Assembly: GCA_043778225.1 (NCBI GenBank)
Contig: JAYWGM010000094.1
Location: 1 to 64,000 of the forward strand
Direction: 5' to 3'
DNA length: 64,000 bases
Source: Deinococcales bacterium
GTDB taxonomy: Bacteria > Deinococcota > Deinococci > Deinococcales > JAAFIG01
The translations under genes were made by a program, and so were the position numbers. The notes under the pieces were generated by a model. It saw only the letters and a list, made by a program, of their open reading frames with translations, was not told where the DNA came from and did no database searches. Positions 1 through 11,083 of the stretch are shown here, piece by piece. The stretch's first letter is position 1. Every line of letters begins with the position of its first letter.

Positions 1-117
1 TCGTTGCAGGCGTTTGACGAGAGACTTTGAGGGTTTACCGAGTACAACCGAATCTTGGGCTTATTTGGCGAATATTCAGTTGATTTTGAGACGTTTTGAA
101 ACTTTATAAACACGCTC
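1..117 (+). mobile_element. IS5-family insertion sequence, right end (transposase C-terminus 2-109 plus terminal inverted repeat)
   Basis: Frame 2 reads RCRRLTRDFEGLPSTTESWAYLANIQLILRRFETL*, matching the IS5-type C-terminal pattern RRLxxDYE...IxLxLRR. It ends ...AAACACGCTC and is followed by TTA, a typical TWA target. Confidence 0.75.
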
Positions 118-534
118 TTAGGGTCTGGACATGGATTTGGAATACAGCTAGGTACTTCAATGGAAATTGGCGTGGGAAATGTCGGGTTGTCAGGTCAAGT
201 GGCTGTTGGTGCTGGGGTTTTCTTTGACCGCCAAAATAATTTAAGCATTGGTGTTTTTACTGCTGGTGGAGCATCCACATCAAATGTTGCAGGCTTTTCC
301 ATTGGTGCTTCAGCAGGTGTATTTGGTACTAATGCTCGAAAAGTGGAAAATTTAAGTGGAGCAGGTTCGACAGGTACAATTACATTAGGTGCAGGTGCAT
401 TAGGTTATGCCTCAGAAACAACGAGTGGTAACGTGAGATATGGGACTGGCGGTGTCGGAGCAGGTTATGGGTTTAGTATTTCTCGGTATGACACAACAAC
501 TGCTGCTGCTACTATTTTTGGTAGAACCTGTTAA
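118..534 (+). pseudogene. Gly-rich C-terminal domain of a putative polymorphic toxin, 5' part cut off by IS5
   Basis: Frame is open from the IS end (TTA at 118) to the stop at 534. Gly-rich beta-type sequence resembles RHS-type C-termini and is followed by a small AT-rich gene. Confidence 0.55.
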
Positions 535-573
535 TGCGTTATCTTAAAACGGGTCTTTTAATGGGGTATTATT

Positions 574-987
574 ATGAATTCGTATCATTTACTATTATTC
601 GTGTCAGGTTTGCAAAGAACACAGCTTATTCAAAATAGCAATCAAAGTAACATTACTTTTGTTTTGGTTAGTTTTTTATATGTTTTATTCGTGCTTGGAT
701 TTTTTTATATTATTACTAGAATTCTATTTGATGCTCGAGTCGTTGAAAATAAAATTTGCTTTGTTTTGTTGGGAAAAATCACGATTTATGAAATGAATAT
801 ATTTGAAGTAAAGGAGTTTAGAATTGCAAAATTATCGGATTTTTTAAATCCTTTCAAATTATTTTTGCCTAATAATCCATTTAACAAAACTCAATATTTC
901 TTTATCTCAAATGGAAGATTTTCTTGTGTATTTTCTTCGAGTAGCTCCTCCTTGCTTATTGAAAAATTAAATTTTCAAGGTAAATAA
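574..987 (+). CDS. AT-rich membrane protein, putative immunity protein
   Basis: 137 aa, one strong TM segment, very low GC, directly downstream of the putative toxin CT. Confidence 0.5.
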   Translation: MNSYHLLLFVSGLQRTQLIQNSNQSNITFVLVSFLYVLFVLGFFYIITRILFDARVVENKICFVLLGKITIYEMNIFEVKEFRIAKLSDFLNPFKLFLPNNPFNKTQYFFISNGRFSCVFSSSSSSLLIEKLNFQGK

Positions 988-1049
988 AAACTTGCATCAC
1001 TCAATTTAGATGTATCTCGAGTCACCCGCTTCTGCTCACACTTGCCCAT

Positions 1050-1114
1050 GCTTCTGCTCGAGCCTCGCGCTTGGTGCTTGGGCAGGTCGCGGAATCTCGA
1101 GCAAGAAAAACCCC
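1050..1114. repeat. 65-bp direct repeat A, copy 1 (core bounded by two CTCGAG)
   Basis: Identical to 3935-3999: gcttctgCTCGAGcctcgcgcttggtgcttgggcaggtcgcggaatCTCGAGcaagaaaaacccc. Confidence 0.95.
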
Positions 1115-1148
1115 TACTCGAGAAAAGAATCTCATGCTTCTCAAGGGT

Positions 1149-1544
1149 CTATCCTTTCACGTTTTGCAGTACCCGCGCAACCTCGAGAACCCGAGCTAAA
1201 CTCGCACTGGCGTATCTCGAGGCTTCGTAACGCTGAATCTGTTGTGGTTTCATTTTCAGTTTGGCTGCTAATTGCGCTTGGGTGAATCCACTGGCAACCC
1301 TTGCTTGAATCAGCTTCTCCGCGATGCCTTGTAGTGACTCGAGTTCGATTTGTGTTTTTCCATCGCGTAATTGTTCAAATTCTTCTAATTCTAAGCCCAG
1401 AACTTCGATTTCACTTTGTACCGCATCATGTTGAACTTGTACTTCGAGTTTGGATTGATCTAATTTTAGGATGTTTAAGAATGTGTTTTTGAAGCGCTCG
1501 AGTTGCATTTTTGTGTGATTGTACTGACGTTGATTTTCGATCAT
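1149..1544 (-). CDS. XRE-family HTH protein, putative antitoxin
   Basis: C-terminal HTH (ARVASGFTQAQLAAKLKMKPQQIQRYE); start overlaps the upstream gene's stop. Confidence 0.85.
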   Translation of the reverse strand: MIENQRQYNHTKMQLERFKNTFLNILKLDQSKLEVQVQHDAVQSEIEVLGLELEEFEQLRDGKTQIELESLQGIAEKLIQARVASGFTQAQLAAKLKMKPQQIQRYEASRYASASLARVLEVARVLQNVKG

Positions 1545-1996
1545 GGTTTCACTCCTAATTCGGTTAAGTTTAATTCGAGAATGCCTTTGGGTTGTTGTTT
1601 TCTGTCCATTTGAAAGAATTCAAGGAAAGTCATGCCGTTTGGCGAAGCTGGGAGGTTAGCAGGGAAGCATTCGCTGCTAAATTTTTGTTTCATTTTGGCT
1701 CGAGCATTAGAAAAATCCAGTAAAACAGGTTCGAGTTGTTTGAGTTGATGTAAGTCCGTGTTGGTATTGTCGTAACAAATGTCTATGTCGTTTGGATTGT
1801 CTTTGTTGCTGATAAAACTTCCGTCTATCCAAGCAGTTGGGCAACCGCAGGTGTGTAAGCTGATCAGGGCTGCGCGGAGTCCGCCAATCATGATGGCGCG
1901 GTGTGTGTTCCAAGCGAAGTGTTGTGTGAAGGCTGTCCATGTACATTGGTAGATTCCTTGGGGCAGGTTGCCGTTATGGTCAAAATCTGGTATCAT
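1541..1996 (-). CDS. DUF6932-like nucleotidyltransferase-fold protein, putative toxin
   Basis: MIPDFDHNGNLPQGIY start and WIDGSFISNKDNPNDIDI (GS...DID) motif; coupled to the HTH gene. Confidence 0.75.
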   Translation of the reverse strand: MIPDFDHNGNLPQGIYQCTWTAFTQHFAWNTHRAIMIGGLRAALISLHTCGCPTAWIDGSFISNKDNPNDIDICYDNTNTDLHQLKQLEPVLLDFSNARAKMKQKFSSECFPANLPASPNGMTFLEFFQMDRKQQPKGILELNLTELGVKP

Positions 1997-1998
1997 TG

Positions 1999-2018
1999 TT
2001 ACAACAATAGTGTTGTAA
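1999..2018. promoter_or_regulatory. Palindromic operator of the DUF6932/HTH operon
   Basis: Perfect inverted repeat TTACAACA-atag-TGTTGTAA immediately upstream of the ATG at 1996. Confidence 0.6.
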
Positions 2019-2025
2019 TGATTTT

Positions 2026-3411
2026 TTGTCAAGCTCGAGCAACCCACCACCCAGCAACCCTGCCACCAATGTGACAAGTCCTAGCACAGGAGTCTCGAGT
2101 CCAACAGCAACACCCACAACTCAGACCCCAGCACCCTCGAGTCCAGCCAACGGCACCACCACCTCGAGCAACCCAAGCCCAGCCCAAACCCCAGCAATCT
2201 CGAGTCCAACCACAACATCTAACCCAGTCTCGAGTCCAGCAATTGGTACAACAGGAATTTCTGTGACCCCACTCCAAGCCCCAAGTCAAGCCGCTCCAAG
2301 TGGGGTAGCTGTAACCGCTTCTAGTGTCTCGAGTCCAAATTCAGTTCCAAATGCGCCAAGTGTTACCGCCTCGAGTGTCACCAGCCCAAATGCAAGTGTC
2401 TCGAGTCCTAGTACAGTTTCGAGTGTTAGTAGCCCTAGTGCCTCGAGTTCGGCTGTTGTGGTCTCGAGTGTGACTTCGCCTGTCTCGAGTGTTAAGCCAG
2501 TTGGGGTGACTGTTAAGCCGCTTGGATACTATGATTCCAGTGGTACTTGTGTCGAAAGCGCTACCAGAACTGAATGTAAAACCTCCAAAGAATTATCAGA
2601 CGAAGCAGACCGACTCAAGGCACAAGCCAGAAAAGCAGCAGGTGATGCTGAACGGGAACGAGCCAGACTCGAGGCTGCCCGAATTCGAGCGCAAATTGAT
2701 ATGCGAGAAGCTGTAGGTAATGACCGAACGGCGGATGGTTATGTTAGCAGAATCGAAAATTCGGCTTTGTACAAATCGCTTGAAGGTAATCCAGTTGGTA
2801 AAACCATGTTCTGGCTTGCAATTAGTACAAAACTCGAGGGTAAGGGTTGGAATGAAATTTATGGTAGCCCTCGAGCTTTTGTTGAAGGTGTGGTTCGAGC
2901 CTCGGAAACATTGGTTTATAAAGGCAGGGATTCGCAAGGAAGAATGATTTTTGCTTCTGCTCCCGCGAATACTGGTTCAAGTTCTTTAAGCAATGTAAAT
3001 GCAAGTGCGCCTCCTATTCCCATTCATCCTGCGGTGGTGGGAGCGTACATTGTTATAGGAGGTATTGCCTTAACCCCTGGTATTGGAGGATATTTACTCG
3101 AGGGTATATTTAACGATGTCTACGAAATTTTCAAATCAGGAATAGATATGTTTAGGGGTTTGATAAATGCCGCATCTGATGCTAGGGATGACCCTAATTC
3201 CAAACTTGGCACGAATAAACAAGACAATGGACAAGTAAAACGAATCTCTAAAGACGTAGGTTTGAATCCAGCACAAGAAGATTTATTAGAGGCGGCAATT
3301 ACTGGTACAGGCGCAAGCCCAGAAGAAATTCGAGAAATTGCCGAACAAATAAAAAGAAACTTTTCTGGAGTATCAAAAGGAGATCGGAAACGTGAAAGCA
3401 ACAGAAGGTAG
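2026..3411 (+). CDS. Putative orphan polymorphic toxin module: Ser/Pro/Thr-rich linker, coiled coil, hydrophobic segment, basic C-terminal domain (no convincing start)
   Basis: 461-codon frame with only a TTG start and no RBS. Low-complexity N-terminus is homologous to 4945-5120 and 7845-8040; overlaps a downstream AT-rich gene. Confidence 0.55.
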   Translation: MSSSSNPPPSNPATNVTSPSTGVSSPTATPTTQTPAPSSPANGTTTSSNPSPAQTPAISSPTTTSNPVSSPAIGTTGISVTPLQAPSQAAPSGVAVTASSVSSPNSVPNAPSVTASSVTSPNASVSSPSTVSSVSSPSASSSAVVVSSVTSPVSSVKPVGVTVKPLGYYDSSGTCVESATRTECKTSKELSDEADRLKAQARKAAGDAERERARLEAARIRAQIDMREAVGNDRTADGYVSRIENSALYKSLEGNPVGKTMFWLAISTKLEGKGWNEIYGSPRAFVEGVVRASETLVYKGRDSQGRMIFASAPANTGSSSLSNVNASAPPIPIHPAVVGAYIVIGGIALTPGIGGYLLEGIFNDVYEIFKSGIDMFRGLINAASDARDDPNSKLGTNKQDNGQVKRISKDVGLNPAQEDLLEAAITGTGASPEEIREIAEQIKRNFSGVSKGDRKRESNRR

Positions 3412-3889
3412 GGAAAAGAGTGTTATACAAAATGCGCCAGTATATTGCCTTAAACAGCTTCAGGGTCTAAGTATCTGGAATTTATCACTTGCGGCAGATT
3501 CACTAACAATTCAAATTGGTGAAAAAATTGATATATATATTGTGGCATTAGGTATTACAAGAAAGGTTGGCTTGTTCGGATTGCACGTTCATTGCCAATG
3601 GAGTTTGTACAGAGGTAAATCTCTAATTTTGAGCCGCAATACATTAAGTTCGGATTTTAAGAAAGATTCTGAAACTATTCTTAGTGTATCGGAGTTACTT
3701 TTGAAAAACAAAAGTGTATGCACCATTTGTAATTACTCTCTAGGAAGTTTTGAAGTAGTTTTCGGTAAATTTCTTTTGAAGGTGAATAATGATGTCAAAA
3801 GTGGTGAGGAAAGTTGGCGGATTTTGGATAATTCAAACTCTTTTCACCACAAATACCGAGCTAGGTCACTCCCCTCGCAGGAGAGGTAA
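3392..3889 (+). CDS. AT-rich protein, putative immunity protein
   Basis: Overlaps the toxin-like ORF. HVHCQWSL and GEESWRI motifs recall small immunity-type proteins; low GC, no CTCGAG seen. Confidence 0.55.
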   Translation: MKATEGREKSVIQNAPVYCLKQLQGLSIWNLSLAADSLTIQIGEKIDIYIVALGITRKVGLFGLHVHCQWSLYRGKSLILSRNTLSSDFKKDSETILSVSELLLKNKSVCTICNYSLGSFEVVFGKFLLKVNNDVKSGEESWRILDNSNSFHHKYRARSLPSQER

Positions 3890-3934
3890 TAGACTAATTT
3901 CTCTATCACAGCTTCTCTTCCGCTCGAACAGCCC

Positions 3935-3999
3935 GCTTCTGCTCGAGCCTCGCGCTTGGTGCTTGGGCAGGTCGCGGAATCTCGAGCAAGAAAAACCCC
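3935..3999. repeat. 65-bp direct repeat A, copy 2
   Basis: Identical to 1050-1114. Confidence 0.95.
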
Positions 4000-4016
4000 G
4001 CCATCTCGAGCGGGGT
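3995..4016 (-). terminator. Hairpin terminator downstream of Rpn gene 1
   Basis: ACCCCGC-catctcga-GCGGGGT with an A-tract on the left (U-tract on the minus strand); near-identical hairpin at 6858-6883. Confidence 0.65.
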
Positions 4017-4036
4017 GTAGCTCCTCTTCGATTTTG

Positions 4037-4888
4037 CTAAGAAATCCCGTTCTGCTCGAGTTCTTCGGCACTTAATCCCGTTGCGGCTGCGATTTGCTCC
4101 AAGTTCATTCCCAAAGTTTTTAAGTTTCGGGCTGTCTTTAAGTTGGCGTTCAGTTCCCCTCGAGCCTCCCCTTCGGCAAAAGCTGTTTGTTGTGTCGCAA
4201 AGTTATCCCTAATAATTTTTAGACTGTACTCGTATTGGTCTCTGCCCTTTTGGTCAAGATTTGAGAATTTTGCTACTTCAAATGCACTCGAGAACATTTC
4301 ATCTCCAAGTAACTTTGGGATACTTTGTAAGTCCTTGAGATTGTTGATAAAAAACAACCACTTATCAAGGCGTGTTTCTAATTCCTCAAGTCCTTTTTTG
4401 AAGTTCGGCATCTCGAGGTACATTAGGGTTAGTTTGTCAGAGAATACGTTATTATTCTGGTCTTTGAGATTAACCTTATGCACCACTTCGTAAAGATTAG
4501 CTCGGTCATCATCGAAGGTAAAATCTAAAATGGCAATGCAATAAACAGGTGCAAGTTTATAATTCCAAGTACCTTTTTGTGCTTGTTGTTGAATTGGGAA
4601 AGTAGCATAAAATAGTGTTCTGTCCTTAAAAAAGTCTTGTTTTAATTTCTGTAACTCAACAATAAAATACTCGCCATTCACGCCTTGACAGTAAATATCG
4701 TAAACAGCTTTGCGTTCGTTTTCAATGCTGGGCAATTGCTCGAGATTCTTAAAACTAAGGTCTTTAATCTGGGCAAAAGCGGGCAATAACGAGTTCAAAA
4801 AGTCAATCAAATGGGGTTTTGATGCTTCTTCCCCAAAGATTTTTTTGAATCCGAAATCAGTAAATGGATTGATGAAGGTCGTGACCAT
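4037..4888 (-). CDS. Rpn family recombination-promoting nuclease / PD-(D/E)XK putative transposase, copy 1
   Basis: FINPFTDFGFKKIFG, AVYDIYC, FIVELQ motifs and a C-terminal EQIAAATGLS HTH-like tail. Confidence 0.92.
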   Translation of the reverse strand: MVTTFINPFTDFGFKKIFGEEASKPHLIDFLNSLLPAFAQIKDLSFKNLEQLPSIENERKAVYDIYCQGVNGEYFIVELQKLKQDFFKDRTLFYATFPIQQQAQKGTWNYKLAPVYCIAILDFTFDDDRANLYEVVHKVNLKDQNNNVFSDKLTLMYLEMPNFKKGLEELETRLDKWLFFINNLKDLQSIPKLLGDEMFSSAFEVAKFSNLDQKGRDQYEYSLKIIRDNFATQQTAFAEGEARGELNANLKTARNLKTLGMNLEQIAAATGLSAEELEQNGIS

Positions 4889-5070
4889 GCTATAATCGTA
4901 GCAGCCAAAAGCCTATTTTCCTAGGGTAAAAACGCTTACTTATCACCCCTCTAAGCACTCAAACAGGAATCACCACTGCCTCGAGCGTCACCAGTCCATC
5001 CTCGAGCAACCCAGCCCAGCCAGCCCCGTCGCCACCCCAACCACAGGAGTCTCGAGTCCAAGCACCCCAG
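4889..5070. repeat. Repeat C copy 1: Rpn promoter region plus frameshifted Ser/Pro/Thr linker remnant
   Basis: Near-identical to 7788-7969; homology to 2034-2240 continues to 5120. Confidence 0.9.
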
Positions 5071-5177
5071 CACCAGCCAGCAACCCAATCTCAAGTCCAG
5101 CAAACAGAACAACCACCTCGTGAATTGGGTACACTTTCGTGGACATGAAGTTCGGTTTCAAATGGAAATCGGAGACT

Positions 5178-5531
5178 ATGATGTCAAAACAAATGAAAAC
5201 ATACACACTAGAGTTCAAGCAACAAGCCATCCAACTCGCCCAGCAAGAGGGAATGAGTATTTCACTAGCCGCTCGGGACTTAGGAGTCTCCCAAGCAGGA
5301 CTCAACCGATGGGTAAACTTAGCCAAGCAAGCTGACCTTCATGGACGACCAGCCTTTACTGGACGAGGTGTAATCGCATTGAGTGAATCCGAAAAGCGAA
5401 TGAAAGACCTTGAGCGAGAAGTGGTTTTACTTCGTCAGGAGCGTGAAATTTTAAAAGCAGCAGCCAAATTCTGTCTTGACCCTAAAGATGCACCTGACGG
5501 GCTGGGTCGCTTTGCCAAGGAGAGCCGGTAA
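5178..5531 (+). CDS. IS3 transposase OrfA with a 13-codon in-frame insertion
   Basis: YTLEFKQQAI...AARDLGVS HTH and LRQEREILKAAAKF; GGAG RBS before ATG 5178. Confidence 0.88.
   Translation: MMSKQMKTYTLEFKQQAIQLAQQEGMSISLAARDLGVSQAGLNRWVNLAKQADLHGRPAFTGRGVIALSESEKRMKDLEREVVLLRQEREILKAAAKFCLDPKDAPDGLGRFAKESR
5474..5510 (+). mobile_element. 37-bp structured micro-element, copy 1 (inside IS3 orfA)
   Basis: tcttgaccctaaagatgcacctgacgggctgggtcgc; homologs at 26884, 32429 and 39760. Confidence 0.8.
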
Positions 5532-5578
5532 GGTACGAATTTATCAAAGAAAATCTCGTAAAGTACCCACTAAAACCA

Positions 5579-6394
5579 ATGCTAAACGTTCTAAACGTCT
5601 CAAAAAGCGGTTACTATGCGTGGCTAAACCGACCGAAAAGCAAGCAAAAACTCGAGAATGAAGAACTTGCTAAGAGCATTGAGGAGGTCTATAACGAGTC
5701 TCGAGGCAACTCTGGCAGTCTCAAAGTATTACATGGCTTGGAGGCTCGAGGAATCAAGGCTAGTCGTCCTCGGATAGCCAGGATCATGAAGGCTCGAGGG
5801 TGGAAAGGTAAATGTAAACGCAAATTCCGTGTAACAACAGATTCTAAGCATTCTCATGGGTATTTTGAGAATAAACTCAATCGTGCTTTTGGAGCAGAAA
5901 AACCAAATATGAAATGGGCATCGGACATTACTTACATTCCCACAAGTGAGGGTTGGTTATATCTTGCTGTGGTGCTGGACTTATTCTCGAGAAAAACTGT
6001 GGGCTGGGCAATGGGAACGAGTCTCGAGGCGAGTCTGCCAGTAAAAGCACTTGAGATGGCTCGAGTGAGTCGTAAACCAAGTGATGGACTGCTACATCAC
6101 TCTGACCGTGGCGTGCAATACGCTAGTCTCGAGTTCCAAACGGCTGTTGGTAAATTCAATGGAATCTCGAGTATGAGTAGAAAGGGGAATTGCTGGGATA
6201 ATGCTGTGGTAGAGAGTTTCTTTGGTACTTTGAAGCTCGAGTTAGGTTTAGATAAAGTTATTGGGTCTCGAGAAGTCACAAAAGCTGTGGTGTTCGAGTG
6301 GATTGAAGTGTTCTACAATCGTCAACGGCTGCACTCAACAAATGGAACTTGGGACAGCCTTTTAGATGATATTGCTGAGGATTGTTCCAAATGA
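5579..6394 (+). pseudogene. IS3 transposase OrfB (DDE), C-terminally truncated and fused to the tail of an unrelated gene
   Basis: WASDITY, HHSDRGVQY and GNCWDNAVVESFF motifs. After RLHST the sequence becomes NGTWDSLLDDIAEDCSK*. Confidence 0.85.
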
Positions 6395-6741
6395 AAAAGC
6401 GCCACAGGTATTTATTATCTTCTGTAGACTTCCTCAGAAAGAATGTCGTTATTTCACTGTTAGGTTTGCATTTTTTGCTGGGGATTGTAGTACAAGTAGT
6501 AGCCCTTGGATTTGATTTAGGCTATCAAATAAATGGTTTTTTTTTAAGTAAAGTCTTGATACCTACCTGTTTAATTCTTTGTGTTGTTACGATTTCTATC
6601 AGTATTTTCAGAAAGCGTTATTGGGGCATAGTGTACTCAGCCGTCTATTTCGTATTTAATTATTTTTTCTACATTTTAGTGTATCTATTTATCCTTTTAC
6701 CTATAGCCGCTATTCTGACCGAGTTGCAAAAGATATTTTGA
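6391..6741 (+). CDS. AT-rich multi-pass membrane protein, putative immunity protein
   Basis: ATG overlaps the preceding TGA (ATGA); 3-4 hydrophobic segments; low GC. Confidence 0.6.
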   Translation: MKKRHRYLLSSVDFLRKNVVISLLGLHFLLGIVVQVVALGFDLGYQINGFFLSKVLIPTCLILCVVTISISIFRKRYWGIVYSAVYFVFNYFFYILVYLFILLPIAAILTELQKIF

Positions 6742-6857
6742 TAAGCCACCCTTCATATCCAATCTGTCCTTCACATTTTTTTCCGCTCGAGCCTCTGGCT
6801 CTGCCCACGCTCGCTTGTGGCTAGGAAGGCGAAGGGCAAAAGGCAAAAGGCAAAAGT

Positions 6858-6883
6858 AAACCCCGCCATCTCGAGCGGGGTTT
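6858..6883 (-). terminator. Hairpin terminator downstream of Rpn gene 2
   Basis: AAACCCCGC-catctcga-GCGGGGTTT. Confidence 0.65.
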
Positions 6884-6899
6884 ACTTCTTTGGCGTTTT

Positions 6900-7787
6900 C
6901 TAAGAAATTCCGTTCTGCTCGAGTTCTTCCGTACTTAATCCTGTAATCGCCTGAATCTGTTCAAGTGTTAGTCCTGTGGCTTTTGAATTTCTCGCTACCT
7001 CGAGCTTGGCTTTTAGTTCTCCCTCGAGAATACCCGCTTCACGCCCTTTTGCTTCCCCTTCGAGAAGTCCTTCTTCTCTTGCCGATTTGAACGCCGAATA
7101 ATTATCCCGCAGACTTTTTAAGCTGTACTCATAGCTATCCCGTTCACTCGGCTCGAGATTCGCGTATTTGGCTGTTTCAAAGGCAGATAAAAAGGCTTCT
7201 TCTTTGAATAGTTCTGGAATTTGTTGCAAGTCCACTAAGTTCTTTAAGAAGTACAACCACTTATCTAGGCGGGTTTCTAATTGCTCGAGTGGCTTATCAA
7301 AATTTGGCATTTCAAGATAAATAAAAGTGAGTTTCTTGTAGAATACTTCATTGTTCTGGTCTTTGAGTTCAACCGTATGAACCACTTCGGTACGATTTGC
7401 TTTCTTATCATCGAAGGTAAAGCCTAAAACACCAACACAATACACGGGTTGAAGCAGGTAATCCCAGTCTCCTTTGGGTGCTTGGTCTTGAATTGGAAAC
7501 GTAGCATAGTAAAGTGTTCTATCCTTAAAGTTAATCTGTTTGACTTTTTGCAGTTCAACAATAAAATACTCACCATTTTTTCCACGGCAATAAATGTCGT
7601 AAACAGCTTTGCGTTCATCTTCGGAACGTGGGAGTTGCTCGAGATTCTTGAAACTCAAATCGGCTATTTTAGCATCATCTGGCAGCAGGGAATTGAGGAA
7701 ATCAATCAGATGAGGCTTACTGGCTTCCTCGCCGAAGATTTTTTTGAATCCAAAATCAGTAAATGGATTGATGAAGGTCGTAACCAT
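6900..7787 (-). CDS. Rpn family recombination-promoting nuclease / PD-(D/E)XK putative transposase, copy 2
   Basis: Same motifs as 4037-4888; identical N-terminal 36 aa and EELEQNGIS C-terminus. Confidence 0.92.
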   Translation of the reverse strand: MVTTFINPFTDFGFKKIFGEEASKPHLIDFLNSLLPDDAKIADLSFKNLEQLPRSEDERKAVYDIYCRGKNGEYFIVELQKVKQINFKDRTLYYATFPIQDQAPKGDWDYLLQPVYCVGVLGFTFDDKKANRTEVVHTVELKDQNNEVFYKKLTFIYLEMPNFDKPLEQLETRLDKWLYFLKNLVDLQQIPELFKEEAFLSAFETAKYANLEPSERDSYEYSLKSLRDNYSAFKSAREEGLLEGEAKGREAGILEGELKAKLEVARNSKATGLTLEQIQAITGLSTEELEQNGIS

Positions 7788-7969
7788 GCTATAATCGTAG
7801 CAGCCAGAAGCCTATTTTCCTAGAGTAAAAACGCTTACTCATCACCCCTCTAAGCACTCAAACAAGAATCACCACTGCCTCGAGCGTCACCAGCCCATCC
7901 TCGAGCAACCCAGCCCAGCCAGCCCCGTCGCCACCCCAACCACAGGAGTCTCGAGTCCAAGCACCCCAG
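7788..7969. repeat. Repeat C copy 2
   Basis: Near-identical to 4889-5070; linker-like sequence continues to about 8040. Confidence 0.9.
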
Positions 7970-8040
7970 CCACCAACCCAAGTATCCCCAACAACCCAGC
8001 CAGCCCCCAATCTCGAGTCCAAGCACTGGAATCACCCCCA

Positions 8041-8113
8041 GCGTATTCATTTCGGATTGATACCCTCTACCTCTGCTTTTGAAGCACTCGAGAACATCCG
8101 CAACAGCAACCCG
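8041..8113 (-). pseudogene. BrnA antitoxin gene fragment
   Basis: Reverse strand reads RVAVADVLECFKSRGRGYQSEMNT, closely matching RVDADVLEWFKSRGKGYQSEMNA of the gene at 20968-21255. Confidence 0.8.
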
Positions 8114-8127
8114 ATATACTAAAACCA

Positions 8128-8421
8128 ATGGAACTCGAGCTAAGCGGCGAACTTTGGTATTGGCGTGGACCTGCACCACATTACTTTATTATCGTGCCAG
8201 AAAAGCAATCTGTTGAATTAAAAGCTGCCTCAAAATTGGTGACTTATGGCTGGGGAATGATTCCAGTCAAAGCCCAAATTGGCAAAACCAGATGGAAAAC
8301 TTCTTTGTTTCCTAAAAATAACCTCTATCTTGTGCCAATCAAAAAAATTGTCCGAATCGCAGAAAATCTCGAGGAAGGCAACCTAGTGGCGGTACGCCTC
8401 GAGCTTGGCTTTTTGCCTTAG
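8128..8421 (+). CDS. DUF1905 domain protein
   Basis: LWYWRGPAPHYF...TYGWGMIPV...WKTSLFPK...YLVPIKK; TATACT 7 nt upstream of the ATG. Confidence 0.85.
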   Translation: MELELSGELWYWRGPAPHYFIIVPEKQSVELKAASKLVTYGWGMIPVKAQIGKTRWKTSLFPKNNLYLVPIKKIVRIAENLEEGNLVAVRLELGFLP

Positions 8422-8757
8422 TTCGGTGCTTTTTCTTGTTACCTCTAAGCCATTGACAACTGTGTTCTCGAGCTAAAAAAATCACTGTGATGAATTACAT
8501 TCTTGCCGTAGAGTAAGTGTCCAATTACAATTTGGCAGGCAATGTCCTCAGTCTATGTTCAGTTTTTCTACTATACTGCTGGCTATGGCTGAACGGGGGC
8601 TGTAGGCGTTTGCAATGGGATAACCAAGTCGAGCATTGGTCACGCCTTTAGAGGCTATATCACAAAGTTTAGAACCACCTCGAGCTAAGCTCGAGTGACT
8701 GTTTTTGTTGCTGTTTGCCTCTAAGCCGTTTTCCCCACCAAAATTATTGGAGTACCT

Positions 8758-10108: not shown

Positions 10109-11083
10109 TTGAATGCAGTTCGACCAAACACCAAAGTAAAACGCAGCCGTCTGGCGACTCGAAAAAAGCTACCCAAGTCTAGTGGTGAACACGCCACCTT
10201 TCGCGGGCGCTGGTTGCCTTGGTTACTGTTGTTCCCAACCTTACTGATTCTCGGGGTATTCTCGTATTACCCAGCCGCTAAAACCTTGCGCCTGAGCGTT
10301 TTTCGATCCAATATCATTATTGGCAACGAGCAGTTTGTTGGATTCGAGAATTTCACGACGCTGCTCTCGAGTCGGGTTTATCACCAAGTGATTGTGCAGA
10401 CACTGGTCTTTGTTGGGCTGGTAGTGGTACTCGGGTTGGGTCTTGCTTTGGGGTTGGCGTGGTTAGCCAGTAAGCCGATTCCGGGCGCTCAATTCTACCG
10501 CCTGATGCTGATTTATCCGTATGCGCTGTCCCCAGCTATCGCTGGAACGCTGTGGTTATTTTTGTTCAATCCCGAAATTGGGGCAGTCAATAATCTTTTA
10601 GAGACGCTATTTGGCATCAAACCACGCTGGCTTGATAATCCATTTTTGACATTTGGACTGGTGGTCATGGCGACCATTTGGAAAGGGCTGGGCTACAACA
10701 TCGTCTTTTATTTAGCGGCAATCCAAAACCTGCCAAGTGAAGTCATGGAAGCCGCCGAGATTGATGGCGCGACCGCGTGGCAGCGTTTTTGGCACGTGGC
10801 ATTGCCGCTTTTGTCGCCGATGACTTTTTTTCTGATTTTTACCAATATTGTGGCTGCTTTATTCGACAGCTTTGGGTTGGTCAATATCCTGACTCGAGGT
10901 GGTCCGGTTTATGGCGAGACTGGCATCACGACTTTCTTGGTCTATCAGTTGTACGAGGATGGTTTTCGTAATTTCAAAACAGGTGCAGCCGCCACTCAAG
11001 CCGTGCTGATGCTGATGCTGGTGATGTGCCTGATTGTTTTGCAATTCAGATACGGCAACCGCAAGGTACATTATGGCGCTTAG
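10109..11083 (+). CDS. Carbohydrate ABC transporter permease (UgpA-like)
   Basis: FVGFENF and EAA loop EAAEIDGA; start placed at TTG 10109 after a G-rich RBS. Confidence 0.88.
   Translation: MNAVRPNTKVKRSRLATRKKLPKSSGEHATFRGRWLPWLLLFPTLLILGVFSYYPAAKTLRLSVFRSNIIIGNEQFVGFENFTTLLSSRVYHQVIVQTLVFVGLVVVLGLGLALGLAWLASKPIPGAQFYRLMLIYPYALSPAIAGTLWLFLFNPEIGAVNNLLETLFGIKPRWLDNPFLTFGLVVMATIWKGLGYNIVFYLAAIQNLPSEVMEAAEIDGATAWQRFWHVALPLLSPMTFFLIFTNIVAALFDSFGLVNILTRGGPVYGETGITTFLVYQLYEDGFRNFKTGAAATQAVLMLMLVMCLIVLQFRYGNRKVHYGA

Follow-up and report, generated by a model that had tools for sequence, protein, structure and literature searches.

We analysed 64 kb at the start of contig C94 from a Deinococcales genome assembly (G000; 4.03 Mb, 107 contigs, 89% complete), referred to here as the window, with a focus on a series of small genes at positions 1–8113. 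Judged from sequence comparisons, these genes are likely to form a largely decayed orphan toxin/immunity array of an RHS/YD-repeat polymorphic toxin system that is specific to this family of uncultured Deinococcales (both parts taken together). Four modules can be told apart: module 1 would be a tail without its 5' part, module 2 a complete orphan (genes E and F), module 3 an orphan destroyed by an IS3-family insertion sequence and module 4 a bare linker stub. The genes on the opposite strand between them (a DUF6932-HTH pair once, an Rpn gene twice) would be occupants of a variable island and not toxin machinery. An earlier note on this DNA had described a library of toxin cassettes joined by low-complexity linkers. 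Its core idea held, in that orphan C-terminal modules of a polymorphic toxin system are present and the low-complexity linker is the homology shared with full-length genes. A working library in this genome was not borne out, since no carrier gene was found.

Module 2 is whole from the linker onward. The candidate toxin module E (2026–3411, plus strand) comprises a Ser/Pro/Thr linker (2026–2517), a conserved helical pre-toxin-like domain (2518 to ~2970), a Gly-rich hydrophobic segment (~3010–3110) and a three-helix tail (3187–3411). Its stop is overlapped by F (3392–3889, plus strand), the candidate cognate immunity gene. Among 5.8 billion proteins, only four others shared words with the region of E behind the linker and scored E≤1e-3. 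A profile of the E family, built from seven members and scored against 1.84 billion representatives, matched 62 of them at E≤1e-3, of which 60 were shorter than 600 amino acids (aa) and two were giants matched at their C-termini. In an alignment of 41 sequences, the linker was followed by V-(K/T)-P-(L/F/Q), a conserved region that includes two conserved Cys and a coiled stretch, the Gly-rich hydrophobic segment and one of several unrelated tails. Sequences diverged at two points, the first behind V-K-P-(L/F) and the second behind the hydrophobic segment. Furthermore, the proteins P0003 and P0004 were 93% identical over 214 aa and then diverged completely, which is the signature of a polymorphic C-terminus. 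Many of the unrelated tails carry a Cys among their final one to five residues; the terminal and domain Cys may form a disulfide or carry a lipid.

Full-length proteins with the same Ser/Pro/Thr linker, for which the earlier note had suggested a look upstream of the window and elsewhere in the genome, were found in relatives. We searched 61 related genomes for the post-linker region of E, and it matched the C-termini of two open frames of 2823 and 3592 aa in the closed genome G013, which belongs to the same family. The two G013 giants (2805 and 3587 aa) contain RHS_repeat (E 8e-31 and 2e-25) and YD_repeat_2x above its cut-off. Both end with the core, a linker of ~250–300 aa, V-K-P-L, an E-like domain, a hydrophobic stretch and a tail, and each is followed by a small open reading frame (ORF) that overlaps its stop. 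In G006, which belongs to the same genus as G000, a 2834-aa RHS ORF with a hydrophobic N-terminus was found. Its C-terminal region matched a stand-alone gene on contig C102 of G000 (46% over 299 aa). This linker-plus-tail gene (C102:11310–12257) lies 117 nucleotides (nt) from the contig end; its neighbours, named by eye, are presumably asp23-like, nusB-like and folD-like. In total, RHS_repeat was present in seven of the 19 genomes of the family and in four of the seven other genomes of the genus. No secretion-system marker domain was detected in the carriers of the relatives.

The G013 locus also contains orphans beside their carrier. Behind the 3587-aa gene lie two ORFs with starts inside the linker and with tails of other types. 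At the DNA level, 162–324 nt of three fragments (orphans or linker pieces) align with the linkers of the main genes at 80–85% identity. Of the seven alignments, each fragment contributes one that stops at a common coordinate of the 3587-aa gene; the other four stop within ~15 nt of one another, as seen on the 2805-aa gene, or lie elsewhere. In G000, the same linker occurs in E, in the C102 gene and in the stubs of modules 3 and 4. Based on these genomes, a carrier would start with a hydrophobic N-terminus and an RHS core, continue with a Ser/Pro/Thr linker that closes in V-K-P-(L/F) and a ~150-aa helical domain, in which two Cys are conserved, and finish with a Gly-rich hydrophobic segment and a short variable tail. 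A small immunity gene would overlap the stop of the carrier, and promoterless orphan modules that start inside the linker would lie downstream. As in Salmonella rhs, where recombination across a shared 522 bp at 95% identity fuses an orphan to the main gene (PMC3967940), an exchange between the linkers of carrier and orphan would then bring a new tail and the matching immunity gene into the carrier locus.

The tail type of E (~60 aa) occurs in other contexts as well. It was found behind the hydrophobic segment of P0067, a WXG100-headed protein (Pfam E 4.8e-6), on the fragment P0061 and on small proteins. The start of P0061 resembles what we take, by eye, to be the Rhs core end. In all 15 aligned relatives of the tail, a conserved L-H pair contains a His that is replaced by Glu in E (window 3280–3300). 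A comparison of the E tail with PDB sequences gave no match. The earlier note had suggested that protein modelling of the C-terminal domains and downstream genes would help. E could be modelled with AlphaFold2 (300-residue model, mean pLDDT 76.9, conserved domain >90, tail 83–93), and the tail alone was predicted as three helices (mean pLDDT 73.5). A fold match was not obtained: the full model had no Foldseek match at E≤1e-3, and its best VIA Z of 6.5 was to generic helical hairpins. Since a hydrophobic segment is present, a membrane-directed action of E can be guessed. A pattern search derived from alignment A3 gave 52 matches, none of which was confirmed as a related locus.

Small ORFs overlap or closely trail each tail and are candidate immunity genes. 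F was 26% identical to the ORF behind the same tail type in G013 (E 4e-6, pairwise); no further homologue of F was found, and the small gene behind the tail in G126 had no significant similarity to it. The claim that the small AT-rich downstream genes are unrelated to one another proved correct. B of module 1, F and I of module 3 had guanine-plus-cytosine fractions of 0.258, 0.37 and 0.331, compared with 0.49 for the remaining window, and BLASTP detected no similarity among them. B and I were without relatives in the homology comparison, and B had neither a Pfam nor an NCBIfam match.

We then looked for a carrier in G000 itself. PF05593 gave no match in this 89%-complete assembly, while the same search was positive in three of 14 genomes. 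With the G013 giants as queries, tblastn revealed only a frame-broken remnant of the core end (C2:9276–9671) followed by linker up to position 10579. As far as the assembly goes, no full-length carrier of the linker exists in this genome, a result that the earlier note itself had named as speaking against its proposal. The carrier may be truly lost or may merely be unassembled. The remnant and its linker (C2:9276–10579) abut an ABC transporter gene, and a second orphan island lies beside it (C2:3039–8875). This island contains a linker with a Gly-rich tail and a hydrophobic small ORF, and a 711-aa frame with linker, Hint-like part (by eye) and tail module; another orphan starts inside the Hint-like part.

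Module 1 is a remnant. Its A gene (97/160–534, plus strand), a Gly-rich C-terminal tail with a terminal Cys (window 529–534), is followed by B (574–987, plus strand), a small hydrophobic AT-rich ORF and candidate immunity gene. Positions 1–121 belong to a multi-copy repeat, probably the end of an insertion sequence. Bases 24–121 of it recur, 98–99% identical, at the ends of six other contigs. On the plus strand, one frame closes at 107–109, the frame of A is open from 97 and unique sequence begins at ~122. The missing linker of the first module, which had been thought to be lost or outside the window, would thereby be explained: the 5' part is cut off at ~121, at the repeat shared with the six other contig ends. 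A piece of IS3 at the window start was also considered and dropped, as the match was only 23 nt. The assignment of A as the tail of a toxin module comes from context. A toxin C-terminal domain, as had been proposed for module 1, finds no support from homology. A matched the Gly-rich tail of the G006 RHS protein weakly (28% over 111 aa, E 0.014), and an Atlas search returned just unnamed clusters and low-confidence beta-rich look-alikes.

Module 3 consists of a linker stub (4942–5112, plus strand), an IS3-family element (5120–6345, plus strand; orfA 5139–5531, orfB from 5579) and, judged from context, ~16 codons from the end of a toxin tail that is otherwise lost (6346–6394); these codons overlap the start of I (6382–6741, plus strand), a putative small hydrophobic AT-rich immunity gene. 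The supposed third C-terminal domain therefore turned out to be a truncated IS3 transposase: orfB scored 293 bits on NF033516 (cut-off 160). Homology to a second IS3 copy on contig C73 covers 5120–6345 only, where the orfB end differs, and the element thus lacks its 3' end; it belongs to the IS3 family by its transposase match but not by intact ends. Within orfA, positions 5471–5513 hold a ~40-nt sequence that recurs at 86–100% identity in ~49 of the 53 listed matches in the same genome, sometimes in tandem, for example at C1:26155–26300 and C51:61141–61305. It looks like a genome-wide mini-repeat that landed in this IS3 copy.

Module 4 is reduced to the stub at 7841–8040 (plus strand), where a fourth bare linker (7845–8040) had been noted. 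It is present, but as a copy of the module 3 stub (96–98% identity between the linkers) that is apparently frame-broken. Positions 4840–5075 and 7739–7975 are 92–98% identical in 60-nt windows, a duplicated tract that covers both stubs and the upstream region and first ~16 codons of both Rpn genes, whose bodies are only 58–83% identical. When aligned with the G006 carrier (52% over 56 aa), both stubs set in 12 residues after the start of its linker; compared with the single-frame linker of G003, they shift frame between the S-S-S-N-P and T-G-V-S-S-P parts. The frame break and the near-identity make them look like copies of one dead fragment. Third and fourth linkers thus do not count as independent units, but as two copies of one junction.

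The array appears largely decayed because no carrier was found, module 1 has lost its 5' part and the E tail lacks the invariant His. The IS3 element, the repeat at the contig start, the near-identical stubs and the Glu that replaces His in the comparison with 15 of 15 relatives are all signs of this decay. If the carrier is gone, G000 provides an example of how such an array decays afterwards.

Several points weigh against the interpretation as a decayed RHS orphan array. In an NCBIfam scan, which included no separate search for the self-cleavage motif, the Rhs-associated core-end domain was not detected in the G013 giants, and RHS_core reached 18–31 bits, far below its cut-off of 2000; the giants are therefore RHS-repeat proteins, but perhaps not classical Rhs. 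The linker handle in G013 (80–85% over 160–320 nt) falls below the 95% over 522 bp that recombine in Salmonella (PMC3967940). Pfam gave nothing credible for the nine tail-bearing proteins, which leaves the tail without a Pfam family, and the tail model had no Foldseek match at E≤1e-3 (best VIA Z 5.4, generic three-helix bundles). No homologue of A was found. As G000 is 89% complete and without collapsed repeats, the carrier could be unassembled instead of lost. Finally, the recurrence of Rpn and DUF6932-HTH beside cassettes in several genomes is only loosely accounted for by calling them incidental neighbours.

Could E and F, together with the C102 gene, have been kept as self-standing units, that is, as a pair acting inside the cell like a toxin–antitoxin (TA) system or mainly as a store of immunity to the toxins of neighbours, neither of which needs a carrier? 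E and F are intact frames despite the missing carrier, the gene caller gave E a GTG start of its own at 2263 (P0001, 382 aa), and the 60 orphan-sized proteins among the 62 family representatives would suit this explanation. Moreover, orphan rhs elements of Salmonella are reported to act as type II TA modules (PMC7043789), and orphan immunity genes to protect against foreign effectors (PMC10539506). However, the E frame opens ~27 nt from the start codon of the DUF6932 gene on the other strand, which leaves no obvious room for a promoter before 2026. The E tail lacks the His that is invariant among its relatives, and modules 1, 3 and 4 are plainly broken. We therefore regard a self-standing function as improbable.

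Between the immunity genes and the following linkers, the array has a layout of its own. The earlier note had read the order as cassette, repeat, opposite-strand gene and linker, and this order is real and conserved at a locus of G003, another member of the genus (contig C99, also designated L114). The repeat, Repeat A (65 nt), is 100% identical at 1050–1114, between B and the 3' end of the opposite-strand gene, and at 3935–3999, and partial at 6781–6800, where 17 of 20 nt match, just as had been described. A search of the whole assembly found no Repeat A beyond the copies in the array, and a dispersed genome-wide element was ruled out. A hairpin shared with the Repeat A region is also present at 6858–6884 and at C2:8908–8941. 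Copy 2 runs into a terminator-like hairpin of Rpn1 (3995–4016; the two together at 3935–4016), and the partial copy into that of Rpn2 (6781–6885). In G003, Repeat A and the hairpin (89–90%) lie between a truncated cassette and a complete linker; copy 1 is 89% identical to this locus and copy 2 89.7% over 97 nt. The 340-nt spacer behind Repeat A in G003 shares 76% identity with C2:8908–9277 of G000. Repeat A as a part of an Rpn unit was also ruled out, since it is lacking from the Rpn copy on contig C57 and from the spacer in G006.

In the window, the position of this spacer is taken by DUF6932-HTH or by Rpn. On the opposite strand of the cassettes, the same place holds a small tail-anchored ORF in G003, on contig C2 of G000 and, as a remnant, in G006; Rpn in G000 (twice), G003 and G006; and DUF6932-HTH in G000, in G015 and, in the other orientation, in G013. 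The small ORF (L114 ~6190–6400; C2:8941–9277) encodes ~57 aa, basic at the N-terminus and with a hydrophobic helix at the C-terminus. The space between immunity gene and linker might accordingly be seen as a conserved capture slot, bounded by Repeat A with its terminator hairpin on one side and the first linker codons on the other, an idea that we advance as doubtful. A more sober view is a variable island in which genes of the defence type accumulate.

The note had described TA or Rpn genes on the minus strand, and the gene families found there fit this description. The putative TA pair consists of an HTH_3 (Xre-type) gene (1149–1544; PF01381, E 3.3e-9) and its partner, a DUF6932 gene (1541–1999; PF22014, 140 bits, with the alignment starting at residue 30 of 178 in the ORF), which are co-oriented with a 4-nt overlap; the likely DUF6932 start is the ATG at 1999. 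The G-S...D-x-D motif of DUF6932 is presumably nucleotidyltransferase-like. Of the 19 family genomes, 14 contain the pair. G000 has three copies, of which only the one in the array adjoins cassettes. Directly beside RHS-type cassettes it was seen in three genera. In G015, a more distant relative that carries cassettes, as does G013, it is convergent with the immunity gene as in the window (contig C27, designated L057, 3708–6822), and in G013 it follows a linker fragment (L055, 7159–8924). Between G000 and G015, the HTH proteins hardly differ in their last 36 residues. We found no mention of DUF6932 in the literature searched.

Rpn1 (4037–4888, minus strand) and Rpn2 (6900–7787, minus strand) belong to the PDDEXK_2/Rpn family, with 214 and 225 bits on PF12784 (cut-off 27.4) and 134 and 127 bits on TIGR01784 (cut-off 52.1), and share 72% protein identity. 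Near their C-terminus, by eye, a four-residue repeat of the G-E-A-R type is present in one unit in Rpn1, ~2 in Rpn2, two in G003 and five in the C57 copy. The upstream boundary of the Rpn unit (~4938–4946 in the window) recurs in many copies across the genus. Identical strong sigma-70-like sites (10/12, extended TG) at 4869–4896 and 7768–7795 face the stubs and point away from the Rpn starts; they are probably the mirror image of the −10 region of the Rpn genes themselves. Read on the other strand, the same TATAAT directly precedes the Rpn ATG, so that Rpn transcripts may be leaderless.

The earlier note had Rpn nucleases interleaved with the cassettes, and this stands for the genus: Rpn is located at the 3' end of cassettes in three of its genomes, G000 (twice), G003 and G006. 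It does not extend to G013 and G015, which have cassettes and orphans but no PDDEXK_2 match, so that Rpn characterises the genus and does not belong to the toxin system itself. These data also bear on whether cassettes are still being shuffled, with Rpn and perhaps DUF6932-HTH promoting an exchange without RecA where linkers and Repeat A form the boundaries. Two of the three Rpn copies of G000 lie inside the 8-kb array. At the G003 locus, Rpn (L114:7577–8593) lies between the immunity gene of a cassette and a truncated Hint fragment, and the sole PDDEXK_2 match of G006 lies 430 nt past the immunity gene of the RHS gene, convergent with it. The identity of 92–98% in the junctions against the lower identity of the Rpn bodies (~70%) fits gene conversion at the junction, and E. 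coli Rpn proteins are reported to increase recombination that does not depend on RecA (PMC5350276). But Rpn is multi-copy in the genus, with 10 matches in G001 (also of this genus) and nine in G003 beside the single one in G006, many of them at contig ends; the third copy of G000, a pseudogene (C57:16771–17721), has no linker beside it; and the two junctions of the window are copies of one event. In addition, E. coli Rpn proteins are read as hitch-hiking TA and antiphage genes that are enriched in defence islands (PMC10400941). Together with the absence of PDDEXK_2 from G013 and G015, this makes Rpn-driven shuffling improbable. If Rpn or DUF6932 did act on the slot boundaries, a dedicated nuclease, instead of general homologous recombination, would drive the exchange of RHS cassettes.

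The note had also taken CTCGAG as a local feature of the recombination handles, which we can refute. The window contains 452 copies against 9.2 expected, yet the hexamer is dense throughout the genome (24,877 copies in 4.03 Mb, one per 162 bp, nine times the next palindromic hexamer). Spacing is one per 133 bp in 1–8113 and one per 143 bp in the remaining window. The C/A-rich tracts that encode Ser/Pro/Thr (2026–2517, 4942–5112 and 7841–8040) do contain one CTCGAG per 41–54 bp, a 3–4 times higher density, because runs of Ser-Ser are encoded as TCG-AGY. In both window and genome, the favoured 8-mers around the hexamer are GCTCGAGC, ACTCGAGT and TCTCGAGA. The longest CTCGAG-free gap of the window measures 845 bp (3097–3942) and runs from the hydrophobic segment across the tail of E and F. 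It is a mere hint of a foreign origin of tail and immunity gene; as proof, such gaps are weak, since gaps of at least 500 bp are common (16 in the window, 849 in the genome). Readers of this genome should be cautious, as CTCGAG density has no local meaning in it.

Downstream of the array, stub 4 runs directly into the sequence upstream of a DUF1905 gene (8128–8421, plus strand). This gene was the sole match at the array site in a synteny comparison across the genus (71–75% identity). An Rfam scan of 1–8500 gave a single sub-threshold chance match.

Arrays of a main RHS gene with orphans, as well as pre-toxin domains, are already established (PMC3967940, PMC3482391). The reference case is the main gene of Salmonella Typhimurium LT2 with its orphan rhs-CT/rhsI array (STM0291/STM0292; PMC3967940; PMC3150448). 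As in the Rhs systems of Enterobacteriaceae, the system described here has, in relatives, a giant RHS-repeat carrier with a variable C-terminal region and an immediate candidate immunity gene; promoterless downstream orphans that keep a piece of the conserved upstream coding sequence; and an orphan tail type in one genome (C102 of G000) that sits on the full-length carrier of another (G006). In contrast to Enterobacteriaceae, carrier and orphans have in common a low-complexity Ser/Pro/Thr linker with V-K-P-(L/F) at its end instead of the end of the Rhs core, no core-end domain was detected, a second, inner break-point follows the hydrophobic segment, the lineage is Deinococcota and a carrier was not found in the orphans' own genome. 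To our knowledge, type VI secretion is not known in Deinococcota. WapA-type toxins of Gram-positive bacteria, which are exported by Sec, are similar in having an RHS carrier with a hydrophobic, signal-like N-terminus and no detected secretion-system marker; we know of no WapA with a long Ser/Pro/Thr linker or a hydrophobic segment before the tail.

Polymorphic toxins in general combine a trafficking part, repeats, a pre-toxin domain, a variable toxin and an immunity gene, and recombine with stand-alone cassettes (PMC3482391). The Deinococcales system follows the same general template, and deinococci appear in the phyletic patterns of Zhang et al. 2012 (PMC3482391). Among the papers listed by our own literature search on Rhs and polymorphic toxins in this group, none contained the name Deinococcus. 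Unlike the systems of Zhang et al., the helical domain and the three-helix tail match no Pfam model. For E. coli, Rpn proteins are described as TA and antiphage genes that are enriched in defence islands and not autonomously mobile, with a hypervariable RpnS repeat (PMC10400941). The paralogues found here vary in the number of their four-residue C-terminal repeats, a trait of RpnS (PMC10400941), but those in the window are PF12784 and not PF04754 as in E. coli (PMC5350276), and a recurrent position at the ends of RHS cassettes is not mentioned in the excerpt on E. coli Rpn (PMC10400941). What is new is the low-complexity linker as handle, the two domains without a family, the two nested break-points and the recurring neighbours. 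Thus, our results extend the Rhs scheme of main gene plus orphans to Deinococcota, provide a case in which a low-complexity linker, and not the repeat core, carries the shared homology, and define two protein modules absent from Pfam, the helical pre-toxin-like domain and the three-helix tail.

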